From: an uncultured Gammaproteobacteria bacterium
GTDB lineage: Bacteria > Patescibacteriota > Microgenomatia > Levybacterales > GWA1-39-11
Direction of reading: 5' to 3'
Assembly (NCBI GenBank): GCA_964450885.1
Contig: CAYVFE010000001.1
Span: forward strand, 65,301-129,300
Length of the DNA stretch: 64,000 nt
Shown: positions 29,825-60,739 of the stretch, one piece after another
Numbering within the stretch: the stretch's first letter is position 1
How the letters are laid out: every line of letters begins with the position of its first letter
The notes under the pieces: generated by a model
Told to the model about the DNA's origin: nothing
Database searches by the model: none
What the model saw: only the letters and a program-made list of their open reading frames with translations
Program-made: the position numbers and the translations under genes

Positions 29825-29827
29825 TGT

Positions 29828-30394
29828 TTATTGAAGCCATTGCTCGGCCATCTCTCTTTCATAGGCCCTGTCTCCCCACGAGATATAGATTCTTGATGTA
29901 TCTGCTCCCTTTGATTCAAGCCAGTTTAGAACGAGCCCTGCAGCCTCGATAAAAGAATCTCTGTTTAGTTGGTACTGAGGATCGTCATCAGTTGTCCTGT
30001 AATCAACACCAGTGATATAAACTGTCAGTATCCATGGAGTATTCTCCAGTAGGTTGTCAGGAATAGAAATATCAATTAGTAGACCTGTCGATAGCGTATG
30101 GGAGGAAAAGTAGGGGAGGTGCTCCTTGATCTTTTCAAGTTCGGTAATTGACGCCTGTATTGCCTGATCTTCAAGGTCTGCCCCTCCACCTTCCTCGACG
30201 GGTTTTACTGGAATACTTTCAACTTTTTCAGGAAGTTTCTCACCAATATCTCTAATAGGTGAAAGTGTGGGCGTCGGTATGTTGGGCTGAGTAACAGGGG
30301 AGAGGGTTTTTACAATATTTGAAATCATAAAAATAACAAATATAATTCCTAGACAGATTACAATAAAAGCGATTATTAGTTGTTTTTTGCCCAT
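29828..30394 (-). CDS. membrane-anchored hypothetical protein
   Basis: 188 aa, N-terminal TM then an acidic ectodomain. Confidence 0.4.
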   Translation of the reverse strand: MGKKQLIIAFIVICLGIIFVIFMISNIVKTLSPVTQPNIPTPTLSPIRDIGEKLPEKVESIPVKPVEEGGGADLEDQAIQASITELEKIKEHLPYFSSHTLSTGLLIDISIPDNLLENTPWILTVYITGVDYRTTDDDPQYQLNRDSFIEAAGLVLNWLESKGADTSRIYISWGDRAYEREMAEQWLQ

Positions 30395-30398
30395 ATTA

Positions 30399-33927: not shown

Positions 33928-33928
33928 A

Positions 33929-34567
33929 TTAGATTATTACGTTTTTTATATCTTTTGAATCAAAATTTAGATTTATTATGTCGTCGTTTAGGAGCTCATA
34001 AAACACTTTTATAAGTTCCTCGTGAGAAAGCTTTCTGGGAGCAAGCCCCATTCTTTCGATTTGCGACATTACAACGCTCGTCTTGGATAAAAGTGCTGCT
34101 TTTGCCTGATCCCCAAAATTAAGCTTCGCATTGGTCTTGTTGGGTTGAGCGGTGTTAGTTACCCCACCTTCCAGATAGGAGTAGGGAATGACGATATAGA
34201 TTTTTTTGTCCAAAAGTCCTTCTCCTTTAACAAGTTCCTGTATAAACTCCTTGTAGTACAGAAGGTGTTCTTTTATTTGGGGATGTTGGGTTGTTGAGAT
34301 TTTTTTGTCGAGATTGTCTATATAGCCTTCCATGTCGATTTTTTTCGAAACGATAAGTATCTGGATGGCAAAAGAAAGAGAATTGATAAGCGACATATAG
34401 CCATAGACTCTCGCGTTTTGCTCATCAGCAGACAGGAGGAAGAAGTTAACAGAAGACACGTCTATAAGCATGCACGCGCGTTTGTTTTTAAGCAGCACGA
34501 CATCGTCGACTATGTCAACAATTTCTGTGAAGCTTTGTGTTGTTGATTTTATATCTTTTTTCGCCAT
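33929..34567 (-). CDS. hypothetical protein resembling VirB4 N-terminal domain
   Basis: 212 aa. TQSFTEIVDIVDDVVLL...DVSSVNFFLLSADEQ parallels the VirB4 N-domain. Ends 1 nt before the VirB4 start. Confidence 0.4.
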   Translation of the reverse strand: MAKKDIKSTTQSFTEIVDIVDDVVLLKNKRACMLIDVSSVNFFLLSADEQNARVYGYMSLINSLSFAIQILIVSKKIDMEGYIDNLDKKISTTQHPQIKEHLLYYKEFIQELVKGEGLLDKKIYIVIPYSYLEGGVTNTAQPNKTNAKLNFGDQAKAALLSKTSVVMSQIERMGLAPRKLSHEELIKVFYELLNDDIINLNFDSKDIKNVII

Positions 34568-34569
34568 AT

Positions 34570-35670
34570 TTATTGCTGGACGGTGTTTCTGCCAAATAAT
34601 TCCTGTCTGAGCTTTTCTCTTTGATCGGTTGAGATAATTTCAAGTGGCTGGAATATTTCGTTATTCATTTCGATATCAATAGGGCTGAACTCATGAATGC
34701 GTCTGATGTCCTCAAGTAGTATCTGGTAGTTGCCTGCAGGAAGTGGTGTTGCAGATGAAAATTGCCCCAGTGCATTTGTCTTGAATGCTCTTACGGGGTT
34801 CCCTGTAGTATCGATGACCTCGACTATGATATTTGGTAAGACTTTCCCTCTTGCGTCTTTTACGATTCCCAGTACTACATTTGGGGTATCGGGAATCTGC
34901 GGGAAACCACTGGCGATCTGATTTTCTGGCGCGACAGATACTGCAGGAGTAGAGGGCATGCTGACAGTCTCTTGGGGGACAGGGATGGCTGGTGTTTCGA
35001 CTGGAGCAGGCATCGGTTGTTCTGCGACCGGTTCCTGAGCGGGCGCAGGTGTATATGCATCTGCCTTTATGGGCTCTGGGGAGCTGTGTGTTGGTGGTCT
35101 GACGATAACGCTTGGTTTTGTGTCCTCCTGAGGACTGCCAGTGTCGATGCTGCTCATCCCTGTGACTGGTGTCTGGGTATCATTGAATATTCCACTTATG
35201 GCATTTAGCTGGTCGCGTTCCTCCGCGTCAACTTTATAGGATGTGTTTTTTCTTACCAGCTGATTTAAGAGCAGTTGTTTCCTACTATCTTTTTGAGCAG
35301 GAGTGGGGCCGGCTGGAGCTTTCTGCATTTGCTGTGGGATGAAGTAGTCATGTAGGAGCGCTTCAGCACCTTTTTTCCGGAAGATATATCTGTTTTCTGC
35401 TGGTAATGCTTTCAAAAAGTTTATGAGCATAACATCCATTGGACGTCCTTCTATCGGCAGGAATGCAAGTCCTGCACCAAGTGACGCGATGACCATTATC
35501 GCTGGCCATTTGATCAGAAATGATATCGGCATGATGAAAAACACGCCACAAAGCGCCCCAGCTCCGAGGATGTACAGAAACTGTTTTACTGTAATTGAGC
35601 CTATGAGCCGAAATTTGAACCCAGTAACATCTTGAGGTATAGGATGATTTTCCATAAATAAGAGCACCAC
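34570..35670 (-). CDS. PrgI/VirB3-like membrane protein fused to Pro-rich linker and C-terminal domain
   Basis: N-terminus FKFRLIGSITVKQFLYILGAGALCGVFF with two TM segments, as in Gram-positive PrgI/TcpE. Pro/Ala-rich middle region. Confidence 0.45.
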   Translation of the reverse strand: MVLLFMENHPIPQDVTGFKFRLIGSITVKQFLYILGAGALCGVFFIMPISFLIKWPAIMVIASLGAGLAFLPIEGRPMDVMLINFLKALPAENRYIFRKKGAEALLHDYFIPQQMQKAPAGPTPAQKDSRKQLLLNQLVRKNTSYKVDAEERDQLNAISGIFNDTQTPVTGMSSIDTGSPQEDTKPSVIVRPPTHSSPEPIKADAYTPAPAQEPVAEQPMPAPVETPAIPVPQETVSMPSTPAVSVAPENQIASGFPQIPDTPNVVLGIVKDARGKVLPNIIVEVIDTTGNPVRAFKTNALGQFSSATPLPAGNYQILLEDIRRIHEFSPIDIEMNNEIFQPLEIISTDQREKLRQELFGRNTVQQ

Positions 35671-35771
35671 ACCATATCGATGTGGTGAATAAAGCGTATA
35701 ACGTGAAAATTTTTAATACAAGCGTATCAGAGTAGAGCAAACTATATGATAATTTGAGGCTAGTGTGAAAA

Positions 35772-37865
35772 TTAAGTAGCTTTACCTATTCCGGTTGCAG
35801 CAACTCCTACAGCTCCAGCGCCAACTGTGGCCACAGCGCCAGCGCCTATAATAGCGATTAGAATATAGATGAGCCATTTCATCTTCGAGTCTGGTTTTAT
35901 CCCGGAGGCCTCAAGGTTCTTTAGGACATTTCCTGCTTCTTTGGATTTTGCCAGGCCGCTTGCGAGTTGTCCTCGGAAGTTTTCCTCAAGCATACGCCAC
36001 TCGTCTTTGCTGAGTCCAAGCTTGTCGCTTCCGGGTACCCAGCCCTTGAGTTTGTCTTTAAGAGTCTTTGAAGCAAAGAAGTCTTTCATGAGTTTATTTC
36101 TGTAAGTGTCTGCATGTTTGTTGTATGCGTCATCAAGCCTCTTTTTTTGCTCTTCAGTAAGCCTATTAAGGTCGATATTCTCATAAGTTTCCCTTTCATA
36201 AAGATCCTCGAAAGCGCCTGGGATTGGATTGCCGCTTGCGTCAAGCTTCGGGATTTGAAGCTGCATCTCACGCAGAAGCAGCCTTTTAAGTCCGTCTTCT
36301 CCTTTATACGCAATGGTGAGCATATCTTCTTGAATTCTCACCGTGCTTACCGATTTTGTTCTGGTCTCTCTGTCAAATTTAATCCAGTTTTCTCTCATCG
36401 ACTCAGCTATCGCCTTGTCATCGGCAGTAATTCCTTCCTTCGCGTCCTTTTCTCGTCCTTTCTCGTCAAGTTCAGCTAGTTGTTCGTAGCGTTTCAAGAG
36501 TACTTCCTGCGCTGATTCTGAGAAGATGTTCTCAACTTCGTCTACCAAATCAGATTCAGCTTGAAGCCTAGCGTTGCGGCTGTCTCTCTCGTTCGTATTT
36601 GGATTCGCTCTTTTATCCGCTATTATCGTGTCTAGTTCTCTAATTCTGACTTGATTTTGGTAAAGCTCAGCAAGCTTTGCGCCTATCTCAGAATTGGCGG
36701 CTCCTGCAGTAGGGTATCTTCTGTCAAAGTCGACGAATTTATCGTAATCGGGACGATTTTGATTTACTGTATTCATCAGAGCATCATATTCGTTGCTAAG
36801 AGTTTCGTATTGGGAATACAGCTTATTGGCGGCATCTACTGCTGCTTGATTCGGAATAGCGTTCTTGTTCATTGTTGTAGGGATTTTCCCCTGATTCCAT
36901 CGTGCAAACGCTTCGTCAGTCCGGTTTTTTAGTTCCGAAATTTTTGAGAACTCAGCGTAGTGGGGCACTTTTTCCACAGTCAATTGGCGAATCTGTCGAA
37001 GAATTTGTTCTGGGGTCGCTCCATTTCCTATCGCATCCTCGATAGCTTTTTTTTCAGCAGGGTCAAGCGGTTGTCCGGTATCCGTCTCGATAGATTTGAC
37101 TATCTGATCGACTCCTTCCTGAGCCTTTGTTTTTGCAGATTTCTGTTCTTTCTCGGCATTCTTTAACTCGTCATCTTTTGCGACTTCTGGCAGCGCTTCG
37201 GCGCGTGCTGACAGCTCTCTAAACTTTGTAGCGATTGTTGTTCTGAGGCCTATTTCCCTGCCCAGGGTTTTTTCGATATATTTCCTTTTGTATTCTGGAT
37301 GCATTGAGGGGTCTGCTAGTTCCGGGAAGAGCGATTTTATATATCCGCTTGAGAGTAAGGCATCAAGCCCGGCTATTCTCTGCCTATCATATTCAGCTGC
37401 GCTTTTGATACTTGTATCACCCCTGGCAACTCTCGATCGGATGGTATCTGGTATGCTGATTCCGGTTCTTTCCGATTCTGCCAGGATGCTTGAGTATTGT
37501 AGAAATGCAGATGCTTGCTCTGCAGCTCTTTTTGCTCTTTCAAAGGACGCCTTTTCTGCAGGAGTTGCATTTGCTTTCGCTTCGACGAGATGGGTTGCTG
37601 GATTCTCTTCGGTTTCCCCAGCTCCGAATTTTAGCTCAAATGCATTTAGCTGAAGTCTACCAAAAGACGTCTCCCTCGTAGTTTCTGATGCCATTTGGAG
37701 ACCTTCTTTACCGCTCTTTCCATCTTTACGGAGCTGTTCTAAGTCCTTTTGGCGTTGAAGCTGCTCTGGGGTTATGCCTGGGAGATTTACGCTAGTGTCT
37801 CCCGCCTGCAGGACTTCTTTTGGTGTAAATTTTGGCGCTTCGGGCGCTGATGTTGCATCCGGCAT
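35772..37865 (-). CDS. long coiled-coil, C-terminally tail-anchored protein
   Basis: 697 aa, helical and charged, with a single C-terminal TM (WLIYILIAIIGAGAVATVGAGAVGVAATGIG). Confidence 0.45.
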   Translation of the reverse strand: MPDATSAPEAPKFTPKEVLQAGDTSVNLPGITPEQLQRQKDLEQLRKDGKSGKEGLQMASETTRETSFGRLQLNAFELKFGAGETEENPATHLVEAKANATPAEKASFERAKRAAEQASAFLQYSSILAESERTGISIPDTIRSRVARGDTSIKSAAEYDRQRIAGLDALLSSGYIKSLFPELADPSMHPEYKRKYIEKTLGREIGLRTTIATKFRELSARAEALPEVAKDDELKNAEKEQKSAKTKAQEGVDQIVKSIETDTGQPLDPAEKKAIEDAIGNGATPEQILRQIRQLTVEKVPHYAEFSKISELKNRTDEAFARWNQGKIPTTMNKNAIPNQAAVDAANKLYSQYETLSNEYDALMNTVNQNRPDYDKFVDFDRRYPTAGAANSEIGAKLAELYQNQVRIRELDTIIADKRANPNTNERDSRNARLQAESDLVDEVENIFSESAQEVLLKRYEQLAELDEKGREKDAKEGITADDKAIAESMRENWIKFDRETRTKSVSTVRIQEDMLTIAYKGEDGLKRLLLREMQLQIPKLDASGNPIPGAFEDLYERETYENIDLNRLTEEQKKRLDDAYNKHADTYRNKLMKDFFASKTLKDKLKGWVPGSDKLGLSKDEWRMLEENFRGQLASGLAKSKEAGNVLKNLEASGIKPDSKMKWLIYILIAIIGAGAVATVGAGAVGVAATGIGKAT

Positions 37866-37866
37866 A

Positions 37867-38241
37867 TTAGATTGAGTTCAGTTTTTCTCTTGTCGCATCA
37901 AGCGTGCTGGCTTCTTGTTTTTGAGTATCATTATCTTTGTATTTCAGATAAGTATCCTTGTAGACGGGCCATCTGTTTGCCAGGTCTTGCAAGAAAAATA
38001 ACATCGAATCTTCGCTATCTATCTTGTCCAGGGACTCAAGTATAAACTCTGCTGAGAATTGAGAGTCTTCATGTGAGAGGGTGCTTGTTTGAAGACCGGT
38101 AAGTAGAGCGTCATAGAGTTCGTTATAGAGATTATTCTTTTGTTCTTCCGAAACGCTGGTATTGTCCATATATAAACAATACGTCAAATCTAGTGGTTGT
38201 GTCAACGAATTAGAACGTAGGGTTGGTGATCTGACCGACAC
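37867..38241 (-). CDS. hypothetical acidic protein
   Basis: 124-aa ORF. Its 1-nt gap to the gene at 35772-37865 is seen; co-transcription with its neighbours is inferred. Confidence 0.35.
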   Translation of the reverse strand: MSVRSPTLRSNSLTQPLDLTYCLYMDNTSVSEEQKNNLYNELYDALLTGLQTSTLSHEDSQFSAEFILESLDKIDSEDSMLFFLQDLANRWPVYKDTYLKYKDNDTQKQEASTLDATREKLNSI

Positions 38242-38506
38242 CAGTGACTGATGCTATCAGATTGAGAATCGCAAAAGACAGTAGTATAAGAAGAAGTCCG
38301 ATTATCGCATAGGTAAGAGTTTTTTTAGCATTGTCTACCTCCTGTGGGTCACCTTTACTGGTCACGAACTTGAACCCCGCAAAGATTATAAGAAAGAGAG
38401 CGACGACGCCCGCAAAGATAAGCGCCCATTGTACGACATTTTTTATGACTATCGGAACACATCTGAGTGTGGCGACATCGCCTTCAAGACAGGAAGCCCA
38501 TTCCAT
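38210..38506 (-). CDS. T4SS pilin-like (VirB2/TrbC-like) protein, paralog 1
   Basis: 98 aa, two hydrophobic helices flanking GDPQEVDNAKK, then IIGLLLILLSFAILN. Confidence 0.55.
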   Translation of the reverse strand: MEWASCLEGDVATLRCVPIVIKNVVQWALIFAGVVALFLIIFAGFKFVTSKGDPQEVDNAKKTLTYAIIGLLLILLSFAILNLIASVTGVGQITNPTF

Positions 38507-38515
38507 ATAGAGTTA

Positions 38516-38944
38516 TTATTGTATTAATTCGTCGAGACGAGGCAGTGTTAGATTTGTAAGTCCTCCTTCTACTCCAAAAACTGTGAGCAGTACATTTAGG
38601 ATGAAGAAGGAAAGAAAGACTACAACAAGCCCTATGACGGCTGCGATTATCTGATTTCTTGCGGCTTCTACTTTAGAAGAATCTCCAGAAGATGTAATCC
38701 ATTTGATACCGCCTATTATAAGCCAGAGTAGAGCGATTATGACAGCTATGACGAAAAAGACTATGACTATGGCACCTATTACTGCGCCGAAATTCCCGTC
38801 ATTTATTTGACAGACGATATCGAACTGTCCGCCGGGGCAAAGGTTGATTGATGATCCTCCTGGAGGGGTTGAGGTCTGAGCATACGCAAGCTTCGGAAAA
38901 AGAAAGTATAACGGTGAAGAAAGGAGAGCAAATAGTCTTTTCAT
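38516..38944 (-). CDS. T4SS pilin-like protein with signal peptide, paralog 2
   Basis: 142 aa. Signal peptide ...KLAYA-Q, Cys-containing head, then SSGDSSKVEAARNQIIAAVIGLVVVFLSFFILN. Confidence 0.6.
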   Translation of the reverse strand: MKRLFALLSSPLYFLFPKLAYAQTSTPPGGSSINLCPGGQFDIVCQINDGNFGAVIGAIVIVFFVIAVIIALLWLIIGGIKWITSSGDSSKVEAARNQIIAAVIGLVVVFLSFFILNVLLTVFGVEGGLTNLTLPRLDELIQ

Positions 38945-38990
38945 AAGGTCTTATTAATTGTTATCAGCTTTTATTTCCTTTGTCAAGAAG

Positions 38991-39308
38991 TTATATGAAT
39001 TTGATGCCAAATATTCCGCCGAGGATGTTTATTATCGCAAACGCAAGAAGGGCAACTATCAGTCCCAAAACCGCAAAGATTATCTGTTTTCTCGCCTCAT
39101 CTACTCTTTGAGGGTCACCATTCGACTGAATCCAGCGGATCCCAGCCCAGATAAGATATCCGAGAGAGGCGAGGATCACGACTATCAAAAAAATCTGCAT
39201 TCCTACAGAGATTATCGTCTCAAGAGTATTTGCACCTCCGCCGGGAACGCCATCTGGGGCTTTCACCTCTCCATATCCTGGAATTTGTAGTTGTGCAAGC
39301 TGTTTCAT
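38991..39308 (-). CDS. T4SS pilin-like protein, paralog 3
   Basis: 105 aa with NGDPQRVDEARKQIIFAVLGLIVALLAFAIIN, the same motif family. Confidence 0.6.
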   Translation of the reverse strand: MKQLAQLQIPGYGEVKAPDGVPGGGANTLETIISVGMQIFLIVVILASLGYLIWAGIRWIQSNGDPQRVDEARKQIIFAVLGLIVALLAFAIINILGGIFGIKFI

Positions 39309-39311
39309 ATT

Positions 39312-40850
39312 TTATGGATTTGGCGGAGGAAACTCTATGTCGGAAACTGTTTCATCATCGACCATATCTACGCTCGTTTCATTTGTATTCTCCGGTTCGT
39401 TAAATCCAGGTATTTGTAGTATATCACCTGCGATAACTTGAAGAATAACGAATGAGAAAATGATAAAAAGTAGACCTATTATTGCAGCTGTGATAATCTC
39501 GCGGGCATGTTTTATCTTTTCGGGATCGCCGCGTGAAACCATGTAGTTATATCCACCGTATATTATAAGAAGCAGGGCAGCCACCCCTGCTATAGAGAGC
39601 ACATATGTGAAGATGCTAAGTACGAATTCGTCTAGGTCAAGCCCTATCGTACCCAGCGCGGTTTCAATCTTTGCGCAGTCGGCAGGATTTGTTACATCGT
39701 TTTCTCTTCCTGGTAATTGATGAAGAGGATCAGGGACGGCACCATCCTTTAGCTCGGCGCACGGGAGTCTGGTACCACCGCTAGAGAGCCCCAGTTCCAC
39801 GAAAAGCTGCGCCATGGAATTTAGATCTTTTCCCTCAGGATCTATTATGGGATCTCCACACACATTTGCTGTAGGGTCACTTCCTGGTATTCCGACATGA
39901 CAGTGAATTTCTGCGTAGACGAACCCCCCAAGACAGTCATCGTAGTTATGGGATTCATTTATCTGCTCACGAAGCCTAATTACATAATCTCCAGCTAGAG
40001 TAACCCCCTCTTCATCCGTCGGGAATACTTTTGTGACCTGTTCTCCTGGAGCCGAGAAGCTTATGCATGACTGGTTGTTTCCTGGATTTAGAATAGCTTG
40101 ATGTAAGACATCATTTCTCATCCCCGGTCCGTCTACGATGATCTGGTAGTTATTCCTATTCTTTTTATCGCCATTTCCGTTATTGCGGATTTTGGGAGAC
40201 GATACATTAACTGTGAATTTTCCACCAGGAGTAAGATTATTGCTGGGGCTTACCGTCATCTCGGGCACTCCATGATTTACAAAAAACCCCGCTACTGTAT
40301 GGAGTATGAATACATCGCCTGCCTTCTGATAAAGAGAGAGGAGATAGACACTGCCTGGATAAAAATAGTCTTTGTCGTTATTTTCACCGTTTTCGTCTCC
40401 TGCGCACTCCTTGCTTCCATTTCCATTAGTAAATCTTTCGGGGGTCTTTAATTTTGAGTCTCCGTCTCCACAGACTATGATGGTCTTGGATTCGTCGTCG
40501 AATTTATAGCGTTGAAGAGTTTTCTCGTCGACCTGGTCGTCTGTGAGTCCGCGTGTAGCTTGTCCTACGTACTCCAGGTTGCCTTCAAATATCCCATCTT
40601 TTACGTCATCATCGTCTATACATAAATCCTGTTCCATACATATATATAGATCGTTAACACTTAGGGAATCGATGAGGTCTCCTTGGAAGGTGACACTTAC
40701 TGTGCTCAGGTAGTCATTTATTTCCTCGAGAGGAGGCTTCACTGTAAAAGTTGATTCCTGAGCATGGGAATTATTCGGAAATAGGAGAAATAGAGAAAAA
40801 AGCGCGAAAAATAAAACAATAAGCCTTCTTGTCATATTCCTATCATACAC
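39312..40850 (-). CDS. large secreted Cys/Asp/Gly-rich ectodomain fused to C-terminal T4SS pilin-like domain (candidate tip adhesin or minor pilin)
   Basis: 512 aa with a signal peptide and a roughly 400-aa ectodomain. C-terminus ...SRGDPEKIKHAREIITAAIIGLLFIIFSFVILQ is the pilin motif. Confidence 0.55.
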   Translation of the reverse strand: MYDRNMTRRLIVLFFALFSLFLLFPNNSHAQESTFTVKPPLEEINDYLSTVSVTFQGDLIDSLSVNDLYICMEQDLCIDDDDVKDGIFEGNLEYVGQATRGLTDDQVDEKTLQRYKFDDESKTIIVCGDGDSKLKTPERFTNGNGSKECAGDENGENNDKDYFYPGSVYLLSLYQKAGDVFILHTVAGFFVNHGVPEMTVSPSNNLTPGGKFTVNVSSPKIRNNGNGDKKNRNNYQIIVDGPGMRNDVLHQAILNPGNNQSCISFSAPGEQVTKVFPTDEEGVTLAGDYVIRLREQINESHNYDDCLGGFVYAEIHCHVGIPGSDPTANVCGDPIIDPEGKDLNSMAQLFVELGLSSGGTRLPCAELKDGAVPDPLHQLPGRENDVTNPADCAKIETALGTIGLDLDEFVLSIFTYVLSIAGVAALLLIIYGGYNYMVSRGDPEKIKHAREIITAAIIGLLFIIFSFVILQVIAGDILQIPGFNEPENTNETSVDMVDDETVSDIEFPPPNP

Positions 40851-40874
40851 TTAATGAAAATTTCATTGCAAATT

Positions 40875-42200
40875 CTACGAACTAAGCTTATAGCCAGTGC
40901 CTTTTATGGTTTTGATGAATGTAGGATTTGCAGGATCAGTTTCAATCTTTTTTCTGAGCCTGTGCATTATCTGATCAAAAGCCTGATCACTGACGCCTTC
41001 CTGGGTCTTCTGGTCCGTCCACACGGCATTTATGAGCTCGTTTTTACTGAGTACCTTGTCTTTATTCTCAAGCATAAATTTTAAGAGCTTAAATTCTGAC
41101 GATGAAAGTAATTGGGTGATCGGATTGTTTGCCTTAAGGATTTCATTTCTCTGGGCATCGTACTTAATCGATTCGTCGACATCGATTTTTTTGCTTTCGA
41201 TAAAGTCTACAAGTAGGGGAATCGACAGTTTTTTTCCTACCACAAGACCTGTTTTTGTGAGATATTTTTCTGAAAGGTTCTCAAAATCTTTATTTTTCAA
41301 TGCCAGCTTTTCGCTGGGAAGCAGGCTTTGCCAGACTTCACCTAGGGCACTTATTATAGTAGGCTTATCGAGGAGATATTTTTTAATGTCAGTTATTTTC
41401 TCGTCTTCCGTGACAAATTTTTCGTAAGCAAGCTTTGTCAGCTTTGAATGCCCCCCTGTTAGGTCCAGAATTTTTTCTGCGGTATCCTTTCCTAGAGACT
41501 TTCTGGACATCTTTTCTATGTATTTTGTCCTAAAGGAGATTGCGATAGGATCATAAATTGCGATATAGATTTCATTTCCTGTAACTATATCTGAAAAATC
41601 AGTAAGTATGTTTATGTCCACGGTTTCATCGAGCGGCCTTTTAAGTGAAAATATGGCTCCAAATCTATACTTTGCCAGATTCCTAAAAGTCTTAAGGTTG
41701 GCAAAGAAGTCTTCGGTCAGGTTAGGTGCGATCGTGTCAAACCTATCAAAGAGCAGGATCAGTGAGAGTTTTTTTTCGATAGTCAGAAATTCAATCGCTT
41801 TTTTTAAGAACTGCATCATCAGAAATTCGTCATTCATCGAGATTGCTTCTTGAAGAAGGGATCTTACCTTCGTGGACTCCTCCAAAAGTTGCCTTTCGCT
41901 CAAAGAAAATGCGATGGAAGAAAAGATGAGTTTTATTATGTCTATGTGATCTCTTCCCTTTGCCTCTGCTGAGTCTATATAGACAAAATGCATCAATTTC
42001 TCGTACGTTTTCAAGTGATATTTTCTGGCGTCTGTGTTGTATGCGAGGAGTCTGAGGAGGTTGTTTTTCCCCGTTCCCGGAAGTCCTATGATTTGCGCAG
42101 AAAGCCCTTTTTTAAGAAAGGTCAGATATTGGTGAATCTCTTTTTCGCGGGAATTTTCAGGATATAACGATTCAAAGTATTTTAGTGGTGTAAGTGTCAT
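40875..42200 (-). CDS. P-loop ATPase fused to C-terminal OmpR/PhoB-type winged-helix DNA-binding domain
   Basis: Walker A-like GLPGTGKNN near the N-terminus. C-terminal trans_reg_C pattern (ELINAVW...DQIMHRLRKKIE...IKTIKGTGYKL). Confidence 0.6.
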   Translation of the reverse strand: MTLTPLKYFESLYPENSREKEIHQYLTFLKKGLSAQIIGLPGTGKNNLLRLLAYNTDARKYHLKTYEKLMHFVYIDSAEAKGRDHIDIIKLIFSSIAFSLSERQLLEESTKVRSLLQEAISMNDEFLMMQFLKKAIEFLTIEKKLSLILLFDRFDTIAPNLTEDFFANLKTFRNLAKYRFGAIFSLKRPLDETVDINILTDFSDIVTGNEIYIAIYDPIAISFRTKYIEKMSRKSLGKDTAEKILDLTGGHSKLTKLAYEKFVTEDEKITDIKKYLLDKPTIISALGEVWQSLLPSEKLALKNKDFENLSEKYLTKTGLVVGKKLSIPLLVDFIESKKIDVDESIKYDAQRNEILKANNPITQLLSSSEFKLLKFMLENKDKVLSKNELINAVWTDQKTQEGVSDQAFDQIMHRLRKKIETDPANPTFIKTIKGTGYKLSS

Positions 42201-42346
42201 GTAAATATAGTATCACGCAAAATCCATTTGTAAGGCAAGTGTTAGATAGACGTCAAGATGATTATAGCTTCATAGTTTATATTGATCACATTATGGAGCG
42301 ATTGACACGTACGCACACGCTGGCATATCCTTTAGAAAGGAGCATT

Positions 42347-45300
42347 ATGGAAACAGGAAATGAAAGAGGGGGAGTACCCCAATCTAGCGACAAGAATAAC
42401 AAGTCAACAAATCTTGAGGCTTCAAAATCCCGGATGGAGCGGATGGTGGATCGTTTTAAAAAAGATAACGAAAAAACTCCGAGTGGGAACGGCAGCCTAA
42501 GAGATAAAGATGAGAATAAGTCTGCAGAAAGACCTTCGTCTGCTACTGTTGGGACAAGTAAGAGTGGTTTTAATCCCGAAAGGTTTAAAGAAAATCCATA
42601 TTTGCATGTGTTGGCGATGAGGGTAAGGGCCGCGGAGCAGGAGGGGAGAATCGACAACAAATTTCTCGATGAGCTTCGGCAGCAGACATACGAAGGAGTG
42701 GGAGAAGGAAGAATTTCGGATAACTGGGCATTTCAGTTCATCAGGGATATAGATAGAAATTATGTTGTGAATGCCAGCATCCAAAAAGAACACGATGACT
42801 CCAAAGAGCTCTCAAAAGATATAGAGGCGATAGTTGAGCAGAGAAAACAAAGAAGGCTTACTGCAGAGGAAATCGAGGCAAGTCGCGTCGCGCTGGAGAG
42901 CGCGTTCGGAAGAAAGCTTACGACATCCGAGCTTGATCGCGTAACAAGAGGTTCAAAAATCACTGAGAGCGGGAGGAATGCAGAAGCCTTTGGGGCTCAA
43001 ATCCAGACGATCGAAAAGCTTGTGGATAACCCTGATAGATTTGCGGCCTTCGAGTCTTCTCTGTCATCCCAAAGTCCGGATCAATTAAAAAGATTGCTAG
43101 GCGGAGATGGCGGGAGGCTGGTGCTGGGAGCATTACTTGGTGATATAGCTGAGAGGAGTAAGTATTTCCAAAGACTTGAGGAGATATTGAGCAAAGATCA
43201 GGCAGGGATGAAGGACGGATTGATTGCCTTATCAAGAGATATAAAAAGAGATGAGCAGGCAGCAAAACCTAAGGTCGACCCAGAAAAAGCAAGGCTTGCA
43301 AGAGAGCAGGCAGAGAAGTGGATTGAGGAGCAGAGGAAAAAACGTCAGGTTACGGCTGAGGAAGTAGATGCGATTCTCGCGAATGCGGAGAGGGGTGTAG
43401 GGCTTATTATGGGAGGCTCCGACTATAACGAGAACGCGGCAAATATAATGGAGCAGGTTGATATGATTTCAGATGAGACTGGGGAGGCTTTCACCAGAGC
43501 GAGGGACCTTTTAGTCGACGACGATTTGGTGAATGTTTTGGCAGAAGAAATATATGGAGTCGATCTTCCAAATATCAGGGCTGAAAAAAGTAAATTTCTT
43601 GATCTTAAAAATATCGATGACCCAGCAGTATTCAAGTCTCGTTACAAAAGTCTTCTTTCAGATCTACTAGCCAGGGCAAACACGGCAGCATCCGACCCAA
43701 GACGTTTGGAGGAAAGAGTGCAGGCTCAAAAAGACGCTGAGGAATTCACTGCAACGGGCGAGAAGACAAAGGGAGGGAAGACCTTTAATTTGCGAGGCCT
43801 TGAAGAAATAGTCAATAGCATATCACCGCCGCGTCCGGGAGAGCGTCCATTCTTTGAGCGCGAGCCCCGAAATATTAAAGAGGTTGCAGCATGGATTATG
43901 GCAGGGGATGATAGAAGCATTTGGGGGCCGGACGGGAGATATCCGATATTTAGCTGGGGTGAGGGGATAAATCCAGAAACAGAAGCAAGAAACGTTGATT
44001 TTCATGCCCAGAACTTAATACTCTGGCTACGCAATAAGTCTTTGGAGCATCATGCCGATAATCCTAACGACCCGCTAAATCTACTACAAGGAGTTGCGAT
44101 AGAGACTCTCTATAAATCGATAAGCATACTCACGATGAAGTATAACAAGCAAAAGTATTTTGCCGACGAAGAGGGCCGCCCGTTATCAAACCTTGCGGAC
44201 GAAGTCATAAATGAGGCTTGGCTTTTTGGAACCAGAAGAAACAAAAACCTTGGTTATATCCAGGCGATGAATAGCGACGAGAAGTTGTTTGAGGCGATAG
44301 TTGAGCTTAGTGGTAAAAATGATCATACAAACGGTAAGACTTTGTCTGGTCACCTTCAGATGGGTGAGAACTTTAGCGATACGGAAGGCAATGAGGACAA
44401 TAAGGTGGGGGATGCGATGCTGGCTGCAAATCTTATATATAGAAACCTTTCTGATATAGAAAAGCTAAGAGAGGTTTTGCCCGAAGGGTCGCAGATGTTA
44501 ACGCTTGAAGGTTTTAAAAAAGCTTCAAGATATTTGAATGAAGAAGGTTTTTCAGAAGACACTAATGGTTATGGAAACCTAAAGATAGAAGGAAATAGGG
44601 TTTATTTTCTGAATCCACAAACTAAGGTTAGGACGGAGATATTTAATAACGACGGAAAGCTTGTAAGTGATGCAAATCTTATAAAGTTTTTGAACTTCTT
44701 TCCGGAGGCAACTCCTCAAGAGACGAATGAGGCATTTGTGAGAGAGCTTGTCAAGCAAAGTATCGCAGGCATGGTTGGGTTTGATTCTGGAATGGAAAGC
44801 GAAAAATACGAGGAATTTATCGCGGAGCGCAAGGAGGCGCTCGGTAACGCTTATAAAGATATAAGCATTGCGGATTATAGGAAGATTCAGAGGATGAATC
44901 TTGAGTGGGCGGAGACGAATTCGTGGGTGGAGCAGCGATGGAATGGAGCTGCAGCCAGAAACGATACAGGATATAGGGGTTATGATGCGTGGACGAAGAT
45001 GTATGCGCAGTATTACCGCGAGCGTCAGTCTGGGGAGGGAACCGCTGGTCCTATCGGTAATCCCCATGATCTGCAGATATTTCGTCTCCTAACGCCCGAT
45101 ATGTGGCTTGCGATACGTACAGAATCCGGAGAGTCCGTCCAGGAAGTCTTTGAAGAGCTTCACATGCACAATCTTAAGCTATATCAACTTGGTCCGGAGC
45201 AAAAAAATGAAAGGGAAGCTATAGAAAATAAAAAGAAAAAAGTATACGAGAAGTTAAAATTTCCTCGGTGGACGGAGTCTGACTGGGCTGCAAACGGAGT

Positions 45301-46099
45301 CAAGCGTCAGGCAGAGGTTTGGCACAATATAATGAACACTGAGGATCTAAAGTTCAACGAGCTTGTGAAAAGAGACAACTGGGGAATACTAAGATATGAC
45401 AGACAGAAATTTGAAGAAGTCGTAAAGGACGACTTTATAAAAAAACGACGCTACGCTTTTTCATCTAATAACGCCATAAATTATGGAGCGGTGACGCGCA
45501 TGAGGGTAAGAAGCAGCTCAGATAAGGCTATAGACGGTTTTGAATTTAAGGATATGTATGTTGGAGAAGCTATGTTCGGAGAGGTAGTGATGGGATCTAT
45601 CAGACGGGATTGGTTCGATGGTAATCTGCAGTACGATGCAGCAGATGAGAATGGGATGGCTGTTAAAAAGAGTGCCCCTAAAAAGGGTGAGAAGTTCGAT
45701 CCAAAAAAACATGGAACTTTTCAGGAATATCTCAACTCGCGCTCCGGTAGGGGAAAGATACTCAAGAATGTATGTAGGGCGGGAATCGCTGCGCAGATTA
45801 ATGCGCATAGACAGCATACGGGCACCACTGAGAGATGGGATGCTGAAACGATTAGAAATCTTTTAGAGTCATTACATACAATGCCACAGTATGAGGAGGA
45901 CCCTGTTACAGGAGTAGAGGTAAAAAACGAACACGCTCAGTTCTTTTCCAAGGAAGACATAAAGTGGATAAGACAGCAGACAAGAACAACCAAGGGGTGG
46001 CTTATATTTGAGGATGCGAGGCATATTGGTTGGGATGCAGCAGCAGAGGGAATTCCAGAGATGTTCAAGATATTCTTCAAGGATGTTCTCTCTTCCTAA
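42347..46099 (+). CDS. very large (about 1250 aa) charged hypothetical protein, candidate secreted substrate
   Basis: Only long plus-strand gene in the locus. No TM or signal peptide. RBS GAAAGGAG before the ATG at 42347. The track ORF starts at 42194 and overlaps the neighbour's start. Confidence 0.5.
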   Translation: METGNERGGVPQSSDKNNKSTNLEASKSRMERMVDRFKKDNEKTPSGNGSLRDKDENKSAERPSSATVGTSKSGFNPERFKENPYLHVLAMRVRAAEQEGRIDNKFLDELRQQTYEGVGEGRISDNWAFQFIRDIDRNYVVNASIQKEHDDSKELSKDIEAIVEQRKQRRLTAEEIEASRVALESAFGRKLTTSELDRVTRGSKITESGRNAEAFGAQIQTIEKLVDNPDRFAAFESSLSSQSPDQLKRLLGGDGGRLVLGALLGDIAERSKYFQRLEEILSKDQAGMKDGLIALSRDIKRDEQAAKPKVDPEKARLAREQAEKWIEEQRKKRQVTAEEVDAILANAERGVGLIMGGSDYNENAANIMEQVDMISDETGEAFTRARDLLVDDDLVNVLAEEIYGVDLPNIRAEKSKFLDLKNIDDPAVFKSRYKSLLSDLLARANTAASDPRRLEERVQAQKDAEEFTATGEKTKGGKTFNLRGLEEIVNSISPPRPGERPFFEREPRNIKEVAAWIMAGDDRSIWGPDGRYPIFSWGEGINPETEARNVDFHAQNLILWLRNKSLEHHADNPNDPLNLLQGVAIETLYKSISILTMKYNKQKYFADEEGRPLSNLADEVINEAWLFGTRRNKNLGYIQAMNSDEKLFEAIVELSGKNDHTNGKTLSGHLQMGENFSDTEGNEDNKVGDAMLAANLIYRNLSDIEKLREVLPEGSQMLTLEGFKKASRYLNEEGFSEDTNGYGNLKIEGNRVYFLNPQTKVRTEIFNNDGKLVSDANLIKFLNFFPEATPQETNEAFVRELVKQSIAGMVGFDSGMESEKYEEFIAERKEALGNAYKDISIADYRKIQRMNLEWAETNSWVEQRWNGAAARNDTGYRGYDAWTKMYAQYYRERQSGEGTAGPIGNPHDLQIFRLLTPDMWLAIRTESGESVQEVFEELHMHNLKLYQLGPEQKNEREAIENKKKKVYEKLKFPRWTESDWAANGVKRQAEVWHNIMNTEDLKFNELVKRDNWGILRYDRQKFEEVVKDDFIKKRRYAFSSNNAINYGAVTRMRVRSSSDKAIDGFEFKDMYVGEAMFGEVVMGSIRRDWFDGNLQYDAADENGMAVKKSAPKKGEKFDPKKHGTFQEYLNSRSGRGKILKNVCRAGIAAQINAHRQHTGTTERWDAETIRNLLESLHTMPQYEEDPVTGVEVKNEHAQFFSKEDIKWIRQQTRTTKGWLIFEDARHIGWDAAAEGIPEMFKIFFKDVLSS

Positions 46100-46114
46100 C
46101 AAATAAGAGAAGCA

Positions 46115-48388
46115 TTACGAACTACTAGTCCGTTCCCTTAAGTTATTTATTGCTTCTAGTCTTATATTAGTTCTTTCTTCATCTGACATGTTCGTTAGTC
46201 CTCGATCATTCTTAATTATTTCTACTTCGTTTGTAATTTCCTCCTCAGTAAAAGCAGATGGAGCAGGTCCGCCTGTTGTTGGGGGCGTTGCAGGCCCACC
46301 TGTGGATGGGTTTCCAGATGCTATTCCAGAGCCTAGCGCAGACCCTTTCCTATTTTTAATAAGTTGTGGGAGTGGTGTACTTAACACTCGTTGAAATCTT
46401 GATAGACGACTTCCCCCTCCAGTTGGAGAGCCACCTGATGGGGGTGGAGTACCGCCGGATGGAGGAGTGGAAGACCCTCCTTCGTCATCTCCCGGTTCTT
46501 CTGGTTTCGGATTATTTCTTTCTGCCTCAGCCAGTAATATAGCTTTTCTCTCTTCGGATTTTTCACGCCTTTTCTTTCTTGCTTCGGGAGTGCTAAATTT
46601 ATCTCGCAGCTTGTTAAGAGTTGGGATTTTTTCCATTCTTTCAGTAAACTTTTCCCCACTCCATGCCTTTAGTCTTCCAGACTCACCAGTATGAGGATTG
46701 GTGTACCATAATGATTTTCTTATTCCTCCGAATGCTCCTCCGACTACTCCGCTTCCTACGCCCAAAGACTTGCCCATGCCACCAATAAGTCCTCCTGTAT
46801 CGGGAGCCTTTAATGCGCTTTTCACGATATTAAGTGCCTCAGGCATTATGAGTACTACTCCAAGCCCTATGATTGAGGCGAACCCCGAGGCTGGGTTGTC
46901 TCCAAGCTCACCCACGAATGGCGGGATAAGTATTTCTTGAGGAGAAGAAAAGGCCTGTTCCTGAATAGATTTACCTATTAGAAAAAGGAGTAGTACTGTC
47001 GGGAATGCTGCGAGATTTGCGATTATCATTCTTAGCCAGGAGCCAATCCCCCCTCCAACTCCAGGAAGAATGCCGGCAAGTATCCAAAATGGAGCAAATA
47101 TCGTCCCTACGAGGACCATGATAAATGCCTTAATAAGCATTATCCATGTCCGAAATAGTGCGGAAAGCACCGCGATAAGTATAACAAGGTATGCTATCAG
47201 AAATGCGACTAGTTTTATGAAGCTTCCAGCAGTAGCAACACCTATTGCTCCGCCAGCTGCACCTCCGACAAGGCTTCCGATAGTTGATCCTGCAAGTGCT
47301 CCAGATCCTACACCAGCACTTACTGCCATAATAGCAGGAATTAACGCTAGACTAGCTCCTCCTGTGGGGAGGGCTAAGAAAGCAGCTACGCCTCCCAAGA
47401 CAAGTCCGCCAATGCCTCCTAGTAGCTTTCCTATCCCGGCGCCGGCTGACCCGCCGATAATTCCTCCTAATGCCTTAGTAAGGAAGTTCCCGAGTCCACC
47501 ACCAAGATTACCGTCAAATATTCCGCCTAGCGCATTTCCAGCGCCCGTCGCTACAGGTTCTGTTATCGCGTTTATTCCACCTAAACCTCCAACCGCATTT
47601 ATGGGGTTAGTATCTATGCTAGGGATAGTTGCAAGTGCTCTTGAGTCAAAGATATTTATGATCAGATACATAAGCACATACATAGTGTCGACCAAAAAAC
47701 CGACTATCGCATACGAAAGAGTGATGAGAACGAGCGCTACAATTATCCGAGGCAGTTGGTTCTGGATTGTCATGACGCTCCTTGCGTCCAGATTTAGTCT
47801 GAACATGATCCCCAGTCCCAGGACGATAAACACTATTAGAAATAGAAAATACGTAATATCTCTAAATACTTCCCAAAGTTTCAGTATGGGCTTCAATCCC
47901 GCAAACCCGACACCCTGAGCATATGCATTCTGAGAGATGCCAAAATTTTCAGCAAGGTAGCCTCCATAGTGAGTTGAAGAAAGTGGGATATTGTAGGTTG
48001 CTCCAATCATATCTCCCGCGACCGCAATAAGCCCTCCATCAGGCTCAGCGTAACCGAGCTTTTTTGTGACGGGATTTACCCCAAGGCATCTACCGTCTAT
48101 GCTGAGTGGGTTAAATCCTGCCATAAAACACGATCCTGCTCCAAGGATTTCTATAAAGACACTCTGGGTATAGGTCGATAAGTTTTGCGGCACATCAGGC
48201 TCTGTGTTAAGAGGCAGCTGTTGCGGATTTTGAATTTGAGCACCCTGAGCTTCTTGTAGATTTTGGTTTTGAATAATTTCATTTGCGGAGGATGAGGATT
48301 CTGCCTGAGCAAATACAGACGACGAAGAAAAATATAGGAAGAACAGGGCACCTAATATAATAAATAAAAATTGCGATAATTTTTTCAT
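46115..48388 (-). CDS. VirB6/TrbL-like polytopic membrane protein
   Basis: 757 aa. Signal peptide, multiple TM helices, Gly-rich stretches, C-terminal Pro/Gly-rich tail. Confidence 0.5.
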   Translation of the reverse strand: MKKLSQFLFIILGALFFLYFSSSSVFAQAESSSSANEIIQNQNLQEAQGAQIQNPQQLPLNTEPDVPQNLSTYTQSVFIEILGAGSCFMAGFNPLSIDGRCLGVNPVTKKLGYAEPDGGLIAVAGDMIGATYNIPLSSTHYGGYLAENFGISQNAYAQGVGFAGLKPILKLWEVFRDITYFLFLIVFIVLGLGIMFRLNLDARSVMTIQNQLPRIIVALVLITLSYAIVGFLVDTMYVLMYLIINIFDSRALATIPSIDTNPINAVGGLGGINAITEPVATGAGNALGGIFDGNLGGGLGNFLTKALGGIIGGSAGAGIGKLLGGIGGLVLGGVAAFLALPTGGASLALIPAIMAVSAGVGSGALAGSTIGSLVGGAAGGAIGVATAGSFIKLVAFLIAYLVILIAVLSALFRTWIMLIKAFIMVLVGTIFAPFWILAGILPGVGGGIGSWLRMIIANLAAFPTVLLLFLIGKSIQEQAFSSPQEILIPPFVGELGDNPASGFASIIGLGVVLIMPEALNIVKSALKAPDTGGLIGGMGKSLGVGSGVVGGAFGGIRKSLWYTNPHTGESGRLKAWSGEKFTERMEKIPTLNKLRDKFSTPEARKKRREKSEERKAILLAEAERNNPKPEEPGDDEGGSSTPPSGGTPPPSGGSPTGGGSRLSRFQRVLSTPLPQLIKNRKGSALGSGIASGNPSTGGPATPPTTGGPAPSAFTEEEITNEVEIIKNDRGLTNMSDEERTNIRLEAINNLRERTSSS

Positions 48389-52245: not shown

Positions 52246-52432
52246 ATAGCTAGTTGCTAGCTATGTGAATTTAAGATAATATATCAAAGGTTAATTTAGG
52301 TAAGTAGGGTGTGATTCCCTCTCAGTGCCGCTACCGTAAAGACGGAAAACGAATTAACTTTTACGCTCGAGCAAGCATTTCTACAACCTAATCCAGACTG
52401 CAGAAATCCTTCTCGAGTAGAGGGATTTTTTT

Positions 52433-52987
52433 ATGGCTATTTATACAAAAAAAGGAGATAAAGGTAGGACATCTTTGGGAAATGGTGTTCGTGTGTGGAA
52501 AGACAGCAGGCGTGTGGATGCCTACGGTACAATAGACGAATTAAATGCGCTGCTGGGAGTTATCGAATCAGAGTTAAGCCTAATCAATAGGAAGTATGCA
52601 AAGTACGTAAGAGAAATCATAATAACTGTCCAGAACGACCTCTTTTGCATCGGTTCTTATCTTTCTAATCCTGCAAATCGTGAACTTATCTCCCATCTGT
52701 CTGAAAACACTCTAGAGTTTGAGAAAAAAATAGATGAGATGACGCAAAAGCTTCCTGAGCTCACGAACTTTATTCTTCCTGGAGGGACCATCGTTGGTGC
52801 GAATCTGCAGATAGCAAGAGCTGTCAGTCGTCGTGCTGAGCGAAAGCTGATAAGTCTTATCCGCCGCGAGAAAGTTAATCCTGATGTGGTCCAATATATA
52901 AATAGACTTTCAGATCTATTTTTCACGCTATCGCGTTTCACGAACTTTGAGGCAAAAAAGAAAGAGATTATCTGGAAAAAAAGATAA
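52433..52987 (+). CDS. PduO-type ATP:cob(I)alamin adenosyltransferase
   Basis: N-terminus MAIYTKKGDKGRTSL...RVDAYGTIDELN, the canonical PduO/MMAB signature. Confidence 0.75.
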   Translation: MAIYTKKGDKGRTSLGNGVRVWKDSRRVDAYGTIDELNALLGVIESELSLINRKYAKYVREIIITVQNDLFCIGSYLSNPANRELISHLSENTLEFEKKIDEMTQKLPELTNFILPGGTIVGANLQIARAVSRRAERKLISLIRREKVNPDVVQYINRLSDLFFTLSRFTNFEAKKKEIIWKKR

Positions 52988-54393: not shown

Positions 54394-55104
54394 ATGAAAG
54401 AGCTGCTTCTCTCGATACTTTTCCCTAAAAGATGCGTTAACTGTAAAAGATTCGGCAAATACATCTGTGATGACTGCTTTGCACGCATTCACTATCTGGA
54501 TTTTTCAAAGTGCATAGAGTGTATGAAGCCATCGGTCAGCAGTCTCACACACGCGAAGTGCAAGAGGAAAAATAGCATGGATGGAGTTTTTGTTGCAGTA
54601 GAGTATAAAAGCGTAATCAAAAAGGCAGTGTACTCCTACAAATACGAGCCCTATATTTATCATCTGGGCGAAATATTCTCTAGGCTGATGTATGAGTCTC
54701 TCGTTCAAAATGAAGTAGCGCAAAACGTGCTTTCGGTATCCTCTAATGTGTGGATAACTTGTGTACCGCTTCATGAAAAGAGGCTGCGAAAAAGAGGATA
54801 TAACCAGAGTGAAATATTAGGAAGGAAGTTGTCTGAAAAAATGAAATTACGCTTCAATTCGAATCTTCTCATACGCACTAGAAATACTATTGCCCAGTTC
54901 AAATTGAAAAAGGAGGAGAGGGCAAAAAATATAGTAGGTGCATTTGAGATCACGCCTAAATATAGTGAAAAAATGCGCGGGAAAACAATCTTTATAGTAG
55001 ATGATGTCTTTACGAGTGGTGCGACATTGCGTGAATGTGGAAAACTTTTGAAGAAAGCAGGCGCGAAAGCGGTCTACGGCCTCATATTCTCCATGGAACA
55101 GTAA
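54394..55104 (+). CDS. comFC: ComF family protein (phosphoribosyltransferase domain)
   Basis: N-terminal Cys4 (CVNCKRF...CDDC). C-terminal PRTase motif IFIVDDVFTSGATL. Confidence 0.7.
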   Translation: MKELLLSILFPKRCVNCKRFGKYICDDCFARIHYLDFSKCIECMKPSVSSLTHAKCKRKNSMDGVFVAVEYKSVIKKAVYSYKYEPYIYHLGEIFSRLMYESLVQNEVAQNVLSVSSNVWITCVPLHEKRLRKRGYNQSEILGRKLSEKMKLRFNSNLLIRTRNTIAQFKLKKEERAKNIVGAFEITPKYSEKMRGKTIFIVDDVFTSGATLRECGKLLKKAGAKAVYGLIFSMEQ

Positions 55105-55159: not shown

Positions 55160-55546
55160 GGGGATGTATTGATTCGACAGGATTTGTACTTTAAAAACTG
55201 CAAGCCGACAATGATACTAGTCGTAAACGCGTATCAAAAATACATGCTAAACCTAGTTTTAGCGGCGTAAAGCGATTTTTCGCTGATCGTATGCCAACAG
55301 CTAACCCTGTTGGTTATATGCCAGCTTTCGCATAAGCCTGTTCGCTCTCACTCGCTTCTCACACGAGAGAACGAGCATAAACCTGTGAGAAAACTTAACG
55401 GGATTGGTTGAACCGTTTCGTATAAAACCTTTGTCTGGCTTTTCCAGTTAGTAGGATCGAAATTAGACGAGATTAAATACTAACTAAGCTTGTAGATGTT
55501 TAGGAGACAAGTTTTGGACGCCGGGTCACACTCGGCCATCTCCACA
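55160..55546 (+). ncRNA. ssrA: tmRNA
   Basis: 5' GGGGATGTATTGATTCGACAGG. The acceptor stem pairs with 3' CATCTCC-A-CA, and the T arm GCCGG-GTCACAC-TCGGC is adjacent. Internal ORF ...GCG TAT CAA AAA TAC ATG CTA AAC CTA GTT TTA GCG GCG TAA gives tag AYQKYMLNLVLAA. Confidence 0.7.
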
Positions 55547-55548
55547 TT

Positions 55549-60625: not shown

Positions 60626-60667
60626 GCAACTTAATTATAACAGGGATAATAAAGTCGTGCGGTGAGG

Positions 60668-60739
60668 TGGGCATGCTTGGAATTGAACCAAGGACATCCA
60701 TTTTATAAGAATGGCGCTCTACCCCTGAGCTACATGCCC
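60668..60739 (-). tRNA. tRNA-Ile (anticodon UAU)
   Basis: Reverse complement folds as GGGCATG-TA-GCTC-AGGGGTA-GAGC-G-CCATT-CTTATAA-AATGG-ATGTC-CTTGG-TTCAATT-CCAAG-CATGCCC-A. Anticodon TAT. Confidence 0.65.

Follow-up and report, generated by a model that had tools for sequence, protein, structure and literature searches.

The window, a 64,000-nucleotide stretch of contig CAYVFE010000001.1 (assembly GCA_964450885.1) that was analysed as a whole and to which all coordinates refer, carries a type IV secretion system (T4SS) of the Patescibacteria type, and within it a large plus-strand gene (42347-46099) for a soluble protein of 1,250 amino acids. This gene, hereafter the target, is located between a divergently transcribed regulator gene (40875-42200, minus strand) and a convergent gene for a polytopic membrane protein, the VirB6-like candidate (46115-48388, minus strand). 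It is the sole plus-strand gene within the minus-strand block 28719-48388, as noticed earlier, the remaining plus-strand open reading frames (ORFs) being short shadow ORFs. The target is soluble and represents a new protein family; it is a core, co-inherited part of this T4SS locus, in which it is genetically tied to the regulator and the VirB6-like gene.

Start codon and promoter of the target gene

A preliminary description of this stretch, made from the letters alone, had placed here a long plus-strand ORF, which was confirmed together with its end at 46099. The length of 1,301 amino acids given there had to be corrected: it is that of the maximal ORF (42194-46099), opened by a GTG at 42194 that overlaps the divergent regulator gene at its start codon; counted from the ATG at 42347, the protein has 1,250 amino acids before the stop codon. 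An alternative in-frame ATG at 42293 gives 1,268 amino acids. Translation, hydropathy and a motif check of the coding sequence 42347-46099 delineated a soluble product devoid of transmembrane (TM) segments, signal peptide and Walker A motif.

Both the TTGACA at 42302-42307 and the strong ribosome-binding site reported upstream of the ATG at 42347 were found again, the former by direct reading and a promoter scan as the -35 hexamer of the target's own promoter, the latter as the Shine-Dalgarno sequence GAAAGGAG at 42335-42342, read directly 4 nt upstream of the start codon; its AGGAG is kept throughout the clade of the window. The -10 hexamer TATCCT (42326-42331, plus strand) lies 18 nt past the -35 box, and the pair scored 10 of 12 matches in the promoter scan. 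For footprinting, 23 loci that included the upstream region were used, and all 23 have TTGAC followed by A, T or G, then 17-18 nt and TAnnnT, with an exact TTGACA in 20 and a one-base variant in three. The equivalent -10 hexamers are TATCCT, TACACT, TATGCT and TATTCT. This conservation lies at the DNA level, since TTG and ACA are minority codons for Leu and Thr in this genome (10% and 32%, respectively). Judged by sequence comparison, the pattern is the phylogenetic footprint of a sigma-70-type promoter, from which the target would be transcribed separately as from its own conserved signal, and both the -35 box and the start at 42347 gain support from it. The pattern M..LT..Y..M was considered as a conserved N-terminal peptide, a possible signal, and was rejected: L and T are always written TTG ACA, and clades differ in the frame in which they read the -10 box (Tyr-Pro in one, Thr-Leu in another), which points to a promoter.

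Homologues in public gene calls begin 18 codons earlier (MERLT...), at the equivalent of the ATG at 42293. The in-frame upstream extension that results, MERLTRTHTLAYPLERSI (42293-42346, plus strand), encloses the promoter and probably remains untranslated; for this family, gene calls in public databases would then be mostly over-extended, running across the gene's own promoter. Several distant loci have an ATG 7-10 nt past the -10 box, a spacing as in leaderless mRNAs. It should be added that in about eight of ten lineages (our grouping of the loci L001-L024) 39, 45 or 51 nt, each divisible by three, separate the -35 box from the ATG, and that the difference between 17- and 18-nt spacers is offset downstream, keeping this divisibility; the upstream frame thus stays open. 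Moreover, CATTATGGA is present twice, 54 nt apart, at 42289-42297 and 42343-42351. A promoter by itself does not account for the retained upstream frame, which may reflect a long isoform or a repeat bound by the regulator.

Protein family, predicted fold and conserved residues

The general properties previously ascribed to the protein were borne out by the analysis: the charged residues D, E, K and R make up 31.8% of it, the highest 19-residue hydropathy is 1.12, which is below the TM level, a signal peptide was not found, and neither the sequence libraries nor Foldseek with the predicted structure gave a recognisable domain. Pfam returned no match even at E ≤ 10 for the whole protein, its halves or six long family members, and no toxin or enzyme domain was recognised by Pfam searches in the target or the long members. 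NCBIfam gave a single chance match to GrpE, far under the cut-off; PHROGs and PADLOC models did not match the target; and PDB sequences, searched with the single protein and with a 66-sequence profile, yielded low-complexity noise only. Homology to a housekeeping protein was likewise not found for the target. Structural searches with Foldseek gave a best E of 0.06 with TM scores ≤ 0.11 against PDB, and a best E of 5e-3 with a TM score of 0.08 against BFVD, whole multi-domain models having been queried in both cases, so that likeness of a small sub-domain may escape.

The protein is not an orphan, as had been proposed. An exhaustive HMMER search of 1.84 billion cluster representatives with a cut-off of E ≤ 1e-3 revealed 191 homologous cluster representatives (50% clustering), of which 151 matched at E ≤ 1e-10 and 80 at E ≤ 1e-30; an earlier word-indexed search had returned close relatives only. 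Members bear the name "hypothetical protein" only, and no Pfam domain was found in any of them in the family look-ups and Pfam searches. Both the family and its fold are apparently undescribed, and the new protein family defined here could enter domain databases. The region shared by the family corresponds to residues ~500-1250, and the first ~500 residues are lineage-specific, matching the closest relatives only. Family members longer than 700 amino acids span 707-1,890 residues; their N-terminal extensions range from 103 to 831 residues, of which 35% (median) are charged, and a convincing TM segment is absent from all of them.

AlphaFold2 models built on the 66-sequence alignment reached a mean pLDDT of 91.8 and a pTM of 0.90 for residues 500-1250, and 88.0 and 0.73, respectively, for residues 51-1250, low confidence being confined to the first ~72 and the last ~15 residues. 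The protein begins with a low-complexity tail of low model confidence (residues 1-74; 42347-42568), which is followed by a lineage-specific all-helical domain of about 20 helices (residues ~75-470; 42569-43756), recognised from the model and from comparison with relatives. The conserved alpha/beta module that defines the family occupies residues 500-1215 (43844-45991) and was delimited with HMMER, AlphaFold2 and Foldseek. Coiled coil or disorder in the N-terminal half was rejected, as the ~20 confident helices pack as a domain. The target would accordingly be expected to fold as a fast-changing all-helical N-terminal domain joined to a conserved alpha/beta module of ~700 amino acids. A repeat, QRKxxxLTAEE, was also seen within the helical domain at 42836-42886 and 43328-43378 (residues 164-180 and 328-344), and it is kept in close relatives.

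Conservation was assessed with 83 distant family members. Residues N556, W560, R562, R631, Y637, T661, Y698, D703, N783, R864, N872, D873, D880, Y890, D918, K1032, R1035, Y1036, R1051 and H1154 are near-invariant and mostly polar or aromatic, and the strongest motif of the family alignment, RWxGAAARNDTxxxGYDAWTKx5YRxRQS...GPIGNP, falls at residues 864-906 (44936-45064); K884, within this motif, also counts as near-invariant. This set suggests a candidate binding or catalytic site, in which the near-invariant Arg, Lys, Tyr, Asp and His of the module might bind or process whatever the T4SS handles.

The C-terminal part (residues 1216-1250; 45992-46096) is an amphipathic helix, across which the AlphaFold2 confidence declines. 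The sequence of the last ~30 residues varies in the family, yet their amphipathicity is well above shuffled controls: the tail is amphipathic at p ≤ 0.05 in 61% of 160 members, with a median z of 2.06 vs 0.19 for internal control segments. Its charge is not conserved, the last 30 residues being net positive in 44% of members and net negative in 41%, and the tail of the window protein itself is net negative. Many members terminate in motifs such as KDFFKGSFK or FKAFFKGL. The helix is a candidate membrane- or partner-docking tail, or a secretion signal. By analogy, it resembles the amphipathic membrane-targeting helices of MinD and FtsA in length (~15-30 residues) and in that amphipathicity is kept and sequence is not; unlike in those helices, its net charge varies over the family, and membrane binding is putative.

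Known functional classes were considered for the target and set aside. A Walker A motif in GEKTKGGKT was rejected for wrong spacing and lack of conservation. Identity as a type IV coupling protein (T4CP; VirD4/TraG/TraD) was rejected in the absence of Walker A, of TM segments and of any Pfam match to T4SS-DNA_transf, TraG-D_C or TrwB at E ≤ 10, as was identity as a VirB4 or VirB11 ATPase, with neither a P-loop motif nor a Pfam, PDB or fold match. Relaxases of known MOB classes (HUH, Rep_trans, PD-(D/E)XK MOBC and tyrosine-recombinase-like) showed no similarity by sequence or fold. Since every such membership test failed, the target is not a T4CP, VirB4, VirB11 or known relaxase. An anti-phage defence or phage protein was likewise rejected, there being no PADLOC or PHROGs match and no occurrence on phage or plasmid records.

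Gene order and rates of change across related loci

About 20 loci with flanking sequence, obtained by a genome scan, a metagenome scan with a narrower alignment (seven loci) and exact look-ups of family members, were compared. Their identity ranged from 74% down to ~22% and they included a member found at E = 4e-18; one is titled Candidatus Levyibacteriota, a name within the Microgenomates group of Patescibacteria. The gene order common to all of them is the pilin array, the regulator, the target and the convergent polytopic protein, preceded by VirB3, TrsD and VirB4 and followed usually by DUF5667, NrdR and ribonucleotide reductase (RNR) genes. Therefore the slot was never empty and never held unrelated cargo, and the target, being in the same place in every related locus examined, is not a recent insertion. 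Variable cargo at this position, which the preliminary description had offered as something to check, is unsupported as the same family fills the slot in all loci, though the N-terminal half is hypervariable. Each sampled locus has a single family member, and a paralogue is absent from the window; no copies of the family were found in plasmid, phage or viral collections. Origin from a mobile element was rejected, with no matches in plasmids, phages and viral contigs and no break in composition.

Wherever a locus extends to that side of the target, the regulator is present, usually directly adjacent; in L011 and L023 one or two unrelated genes separate the two, and in L012 and L024 the regulator is co-directional with the target and immediately upstream. 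According to domain matches and motif, the regulator of the window (441 amino acids) has an N-terminal P-loop-like motif, GLPGTGKN, and a C-terminal OmpR-type winged helix. The motif carries Asn in place of Ser/Thr, and a receiver domain is lacking. Pilin genes flank the triad in all loci with sufficient sequence, and a three-gene module of P-loop/winged-helix regulator, target and VirB6-like gene is fixed beside the operon of VirB2-like pilins, VirB3, TrsD and VirB4.

The convergent neighbour (757 amino acids) was assigned by hydropathy and TrbL family matches; it has six to seven hydrophobic segments and forms a conserved family of its own. The position of the target between a regulator and VirB6, as first described, stands as far as the place is concerned; the identity of VirB6 is weak, as three of ten members of this neighbour family match Pfam TrbL/VirB6 (PF04610), at a best E of 8e-4, and the window protein itself has no match. 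Because of these three matches the label gains weak support, and it is plausible. The protein of the window is 37-49% identical to those of L001, L002, L014 and L016, which are 56-71% identical to each other (two have called genes of ~630 amino acids); by these figures the VirB6-like partner appears also to have diverged unusually in the lineage of the window.

In comparison with close relatives, identity is 71-76% for the module of the target, 44-71% for the helical N-domain and 19-30% over the first 74 residues. The corresponding values for the PrgI-like protein and the regulator are 64-73% and 65-68%, and in these relatives the conserved module and the genes of the membrane apparatus evolve at similar rates. 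When the loci are compared, the target outpaces the regulator and VirB4 and is roughly on a par with the VirB6-like protein, the regulator being the slower of the pair it forms with the target. Two metagenome contigs, L018 and L019 (Ga0066639_10006551 and Ga0210057_1006762), depart from this: their neighbouring genes are 60-89% identical to the clade of the window, the target module is 30% identical, and the target is not close to any other sampled family member. This pattern indicates the replacement of a subtype or a burst of divergence at one gene.

Gene order of this kind could also be frozen near the replication origin of a reduced genome, in which case the target would be a lineage-specific cytoplasmic protein unrelated to secretion, acting for example in nucleic-acid or envelope metabolism. 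We consider this unlikely. Housekeeping genes do have the same synteny, because collinearity in relatives extends from dnaA/dnaN over the T4SS as far as NrdR, RNR, cobalamin adenosyltransferase and ComFC, and the target has no homology to any T4SS component; yet the triad of regulator, target and VirB6-like gene persists in the distant L011, L012, L023 and L024 despite differing outer genes, the regulator is found co-directional and directly upstream in two of these (L012 and L024), and pilin genes accompany the triad wherever the sequence suffices.

The same neighbourhood, which includes NrdR/RNR and ComFC-like genes, together with the R, K, Y, D and H among the near-invariant residues, would suit a new nucleic-acid-processing enzyme coupled to the T4SS, either a relaxase-like export pilot or a processor, for nucleotide salvage, of DNA taken up by a Ced-like import machine, which we regard as very unlikely. 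A related reading takes the family for an unprecedented class of enzymes that are coupled to the T4SS and have a fold not seen before. Its members might, e.g., supply the pilot or substrate-processing protein that seems "missing" from Patescibacteria T4SSs, as a relaxase-like exporter or by processing host DNA imported for nucleotide salvage. This is consistent with the conserved NrdR/RNR/ComFC neighbourhood and is still quite improbable in our view; if true, it would account for the working of a T4SS that is essential to episymbiotic ultrasmall bacteria and yet has no relaxase.

The target as a partner or a substrate of the secretion system

The T4SS block of the window (28719-40850, minus strand) was annotated with Pfam, NCBIfam and hydropathy and consists of bitopic proteins, VirB4, a TrsD/TraC-like protein, a PrgI/VirB3-like protein, a 697-amino-acid protein and four VirB2-like pilin genes. 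VirB4 (31642-33927) matches P-loop_TraG at 1.2e-36, and domain matches identify the TrsD/VirB4-N-like (33929-34567) and PrgI/VirB3-like (34570-35670) proteins. The pilin array comprises three small proteins with two TM segments each (38210-39308), whose orthologues bear PF18895 (VirB2-like pilin), and a protein of 512 amino acids with the T4SS_pilin domain PF18895 itself (39312-40850, Pfam). The block is directly adjoined by dnaA and dnaN (26160-28722). A T4CP-like ATPase (60786-63173, minus strand; 795 amino acids) with TraG-D_C, TrwB_AAD_bind and DUF87 matches, an N-terminal TM segment and Walker A GKTGVGKS at residue 383 is encoded ~15 kb from the T4SS core, with housekeeping genes in between. 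The features of an MPF-FATA-like system of Patescibacteria are present: VirB4, TrsD-like and PrgI/VirB3 proteins, the PF18895 pilin array and a chromosomal position near dnaA.

In a recent survey, Patescibacteria T4SSs are described as MPF-FATA-like, being related to conjugation systems of monoderms; they are located close to dnaA, include pilin arrays and have their T4CP at another place, and relaxases and several core parts seem to be missing from them (Quinonero-Coronel et al. 2025, PMC12102498). According to a genetic study of Saccharibacteria, such a T4SS is essential for epibiotic growth (Wang et al. 2023, PMC10633639). The window agrees with the systems as outlined there in its VirB4, TrsD-like, PrgI/VirB3 and VirB2-like genes, the nearby dnaA/dnaN, the distant T4CP-like gene and the lack of a nearby relaxase. 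A large soluble protein and the regulator/target/VirB6-like triad are not mentioned in the sections of PMC12102498 and PMC10633639 that were consulted, and no evident counterpart of the target appears in the annotation tables of the Southlakia T4SS cluster SEML1_0006-0019. Patescibacteria T4SSs of this kind have a putative additional conserved component, and the target is a strong candidate either for a functional part that had seemed to be absent from the system or for its dedicated cargo. A conserved gene for ~1,000-1,900 amino acids is thus a concrete candidate for the missing component or principal cargo of the Patescibacteria T4SS; at least one of the lineages that carry it belongs to the Microgenomates group.

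We tentatively prefer, without giving it even chances, the reading of the target as a dedicated partner, not itself an ATPase, that works on the cytoplasmic side of the T4SS; its physical association with the apparatus, its site of action and any activity are what we infer from the locus. This preference was reached because of the size of the family and its module, an order invariant down to ~22-25% identity, the single copy and the apparatus-like rate of change, and furthermore because of the conserved amphipathic tail, the TrbL-supported neighbour and the conservation of the promoter at the DNA level. The terminal helix would tether the target to the membrane or to the VirB6-like/VirB4 assembly. 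By analogy with T4CPs and adaptors, the target would possibly link cytoplasmic substrates to the channel, and it adjoins the VirB6-like gene; unlike T4CPs, it lacks Walker A, TM segments and a Pfam T4CP match, and the window encodes a separate T4CP-like protein.

Several points weigh against this preference. In small genomes of high synteny, genes can be passed on as neighbours without having a common function, and the target forms a transcription unit of its own in divergent orientation. Structural subunits that are large, soluble and not ATPases are, to our knowledge, unusual among characterised T4SSs. The grouping of the invariant residues into one site is putative, the amphipathic tail would serve equally well for docking to a protein or as a secretion signal, and the target of L018/L019, having diverged far beyond its neighbours, looks more like a host-facing protein.

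The main alternative is that the target is a dedicated translocated substrate, an effector or pilot protein, which would be produced in the cytoplasm and whose flexible C-terminal tail would be recognised by the T4CP-like ATPase for delivery to a host bacterium; the conserved module might then act in the host and the variable N-domain adapt to host targets. In T4SS loci, a large soluble protein is generally a substrate (CagA, relaxases and Sog-type primases are examples), and the target is large, soluble and signal-peptide-free. Its own strong promoter stands apart from the apparatus operon, its N-terminal half is hypervariable with extreme divergence in one lineage where neighbours are conserved, the model confidence of the C-terminal tail is low, and a T4CP-like gene lies within the window. 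In being larger than 1,000 amino acids, soluble, free of a signal peptide, encoded in a T4SS locus and composed of conserved and variable parts, it may be likened to Helicobacter CagA and to conjugative relaxases and pilot proteins; unlike them, it has no relaxase motifs and no similarity to them in sequence or fold, and its variable part is N-terminal and folded. We nevertheless hold the substrate reading to be doubtful: the gene occupies the same slot in every sampled locus, unlike most effector repertoires, whose presence is typically, though not necessarily, patchy, the last 30 residues have no conserved net charge, and no toxin or enzyme domain was recognised. The effector-or-scaffold choice posed at the outset is left leaning slightly towards the partner of the apparatus.

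Past the target, the convergent 757-amino-acid protein is followed by a DUF5667 protein, NrdR and a class II RNR. The stretch with NrdR, RNR, the adenosyltransferase and the ComFC-like gene is collinear with the T4SS in relatives, e.g. L022. An AdoCbl-II (B12) riboswitch at 52288-52360 (plus strand), scoring 37.4 bits, just over the Rfam gathering score of 36.5, is placed between the B12-dependent class II RNR and a PduO-type cobalamin adenosyltransferase (52433-52987). The ComFC-like protein (54394-55104, plus strand) combines a double zinc ribbon with a phosphoribosyltransferase domain, and a tmRNA gene comes next (55160-55547, plus strand). Small genes of the 23S_rRNA_IVP type (four-helix bundle), not seen in the window, occur near the module in L001 (1394-1768), L011 (395-829), L012 (1260-1622) and L023 (1300-1692). 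ARAGORN located a tRNA-Ile gene with anticodon TAT at 60666-60739 (minus strand); this tRNA is uncommon in bacteria, where AUA is usually decoded by a lysidine-modified CAU tRNA.

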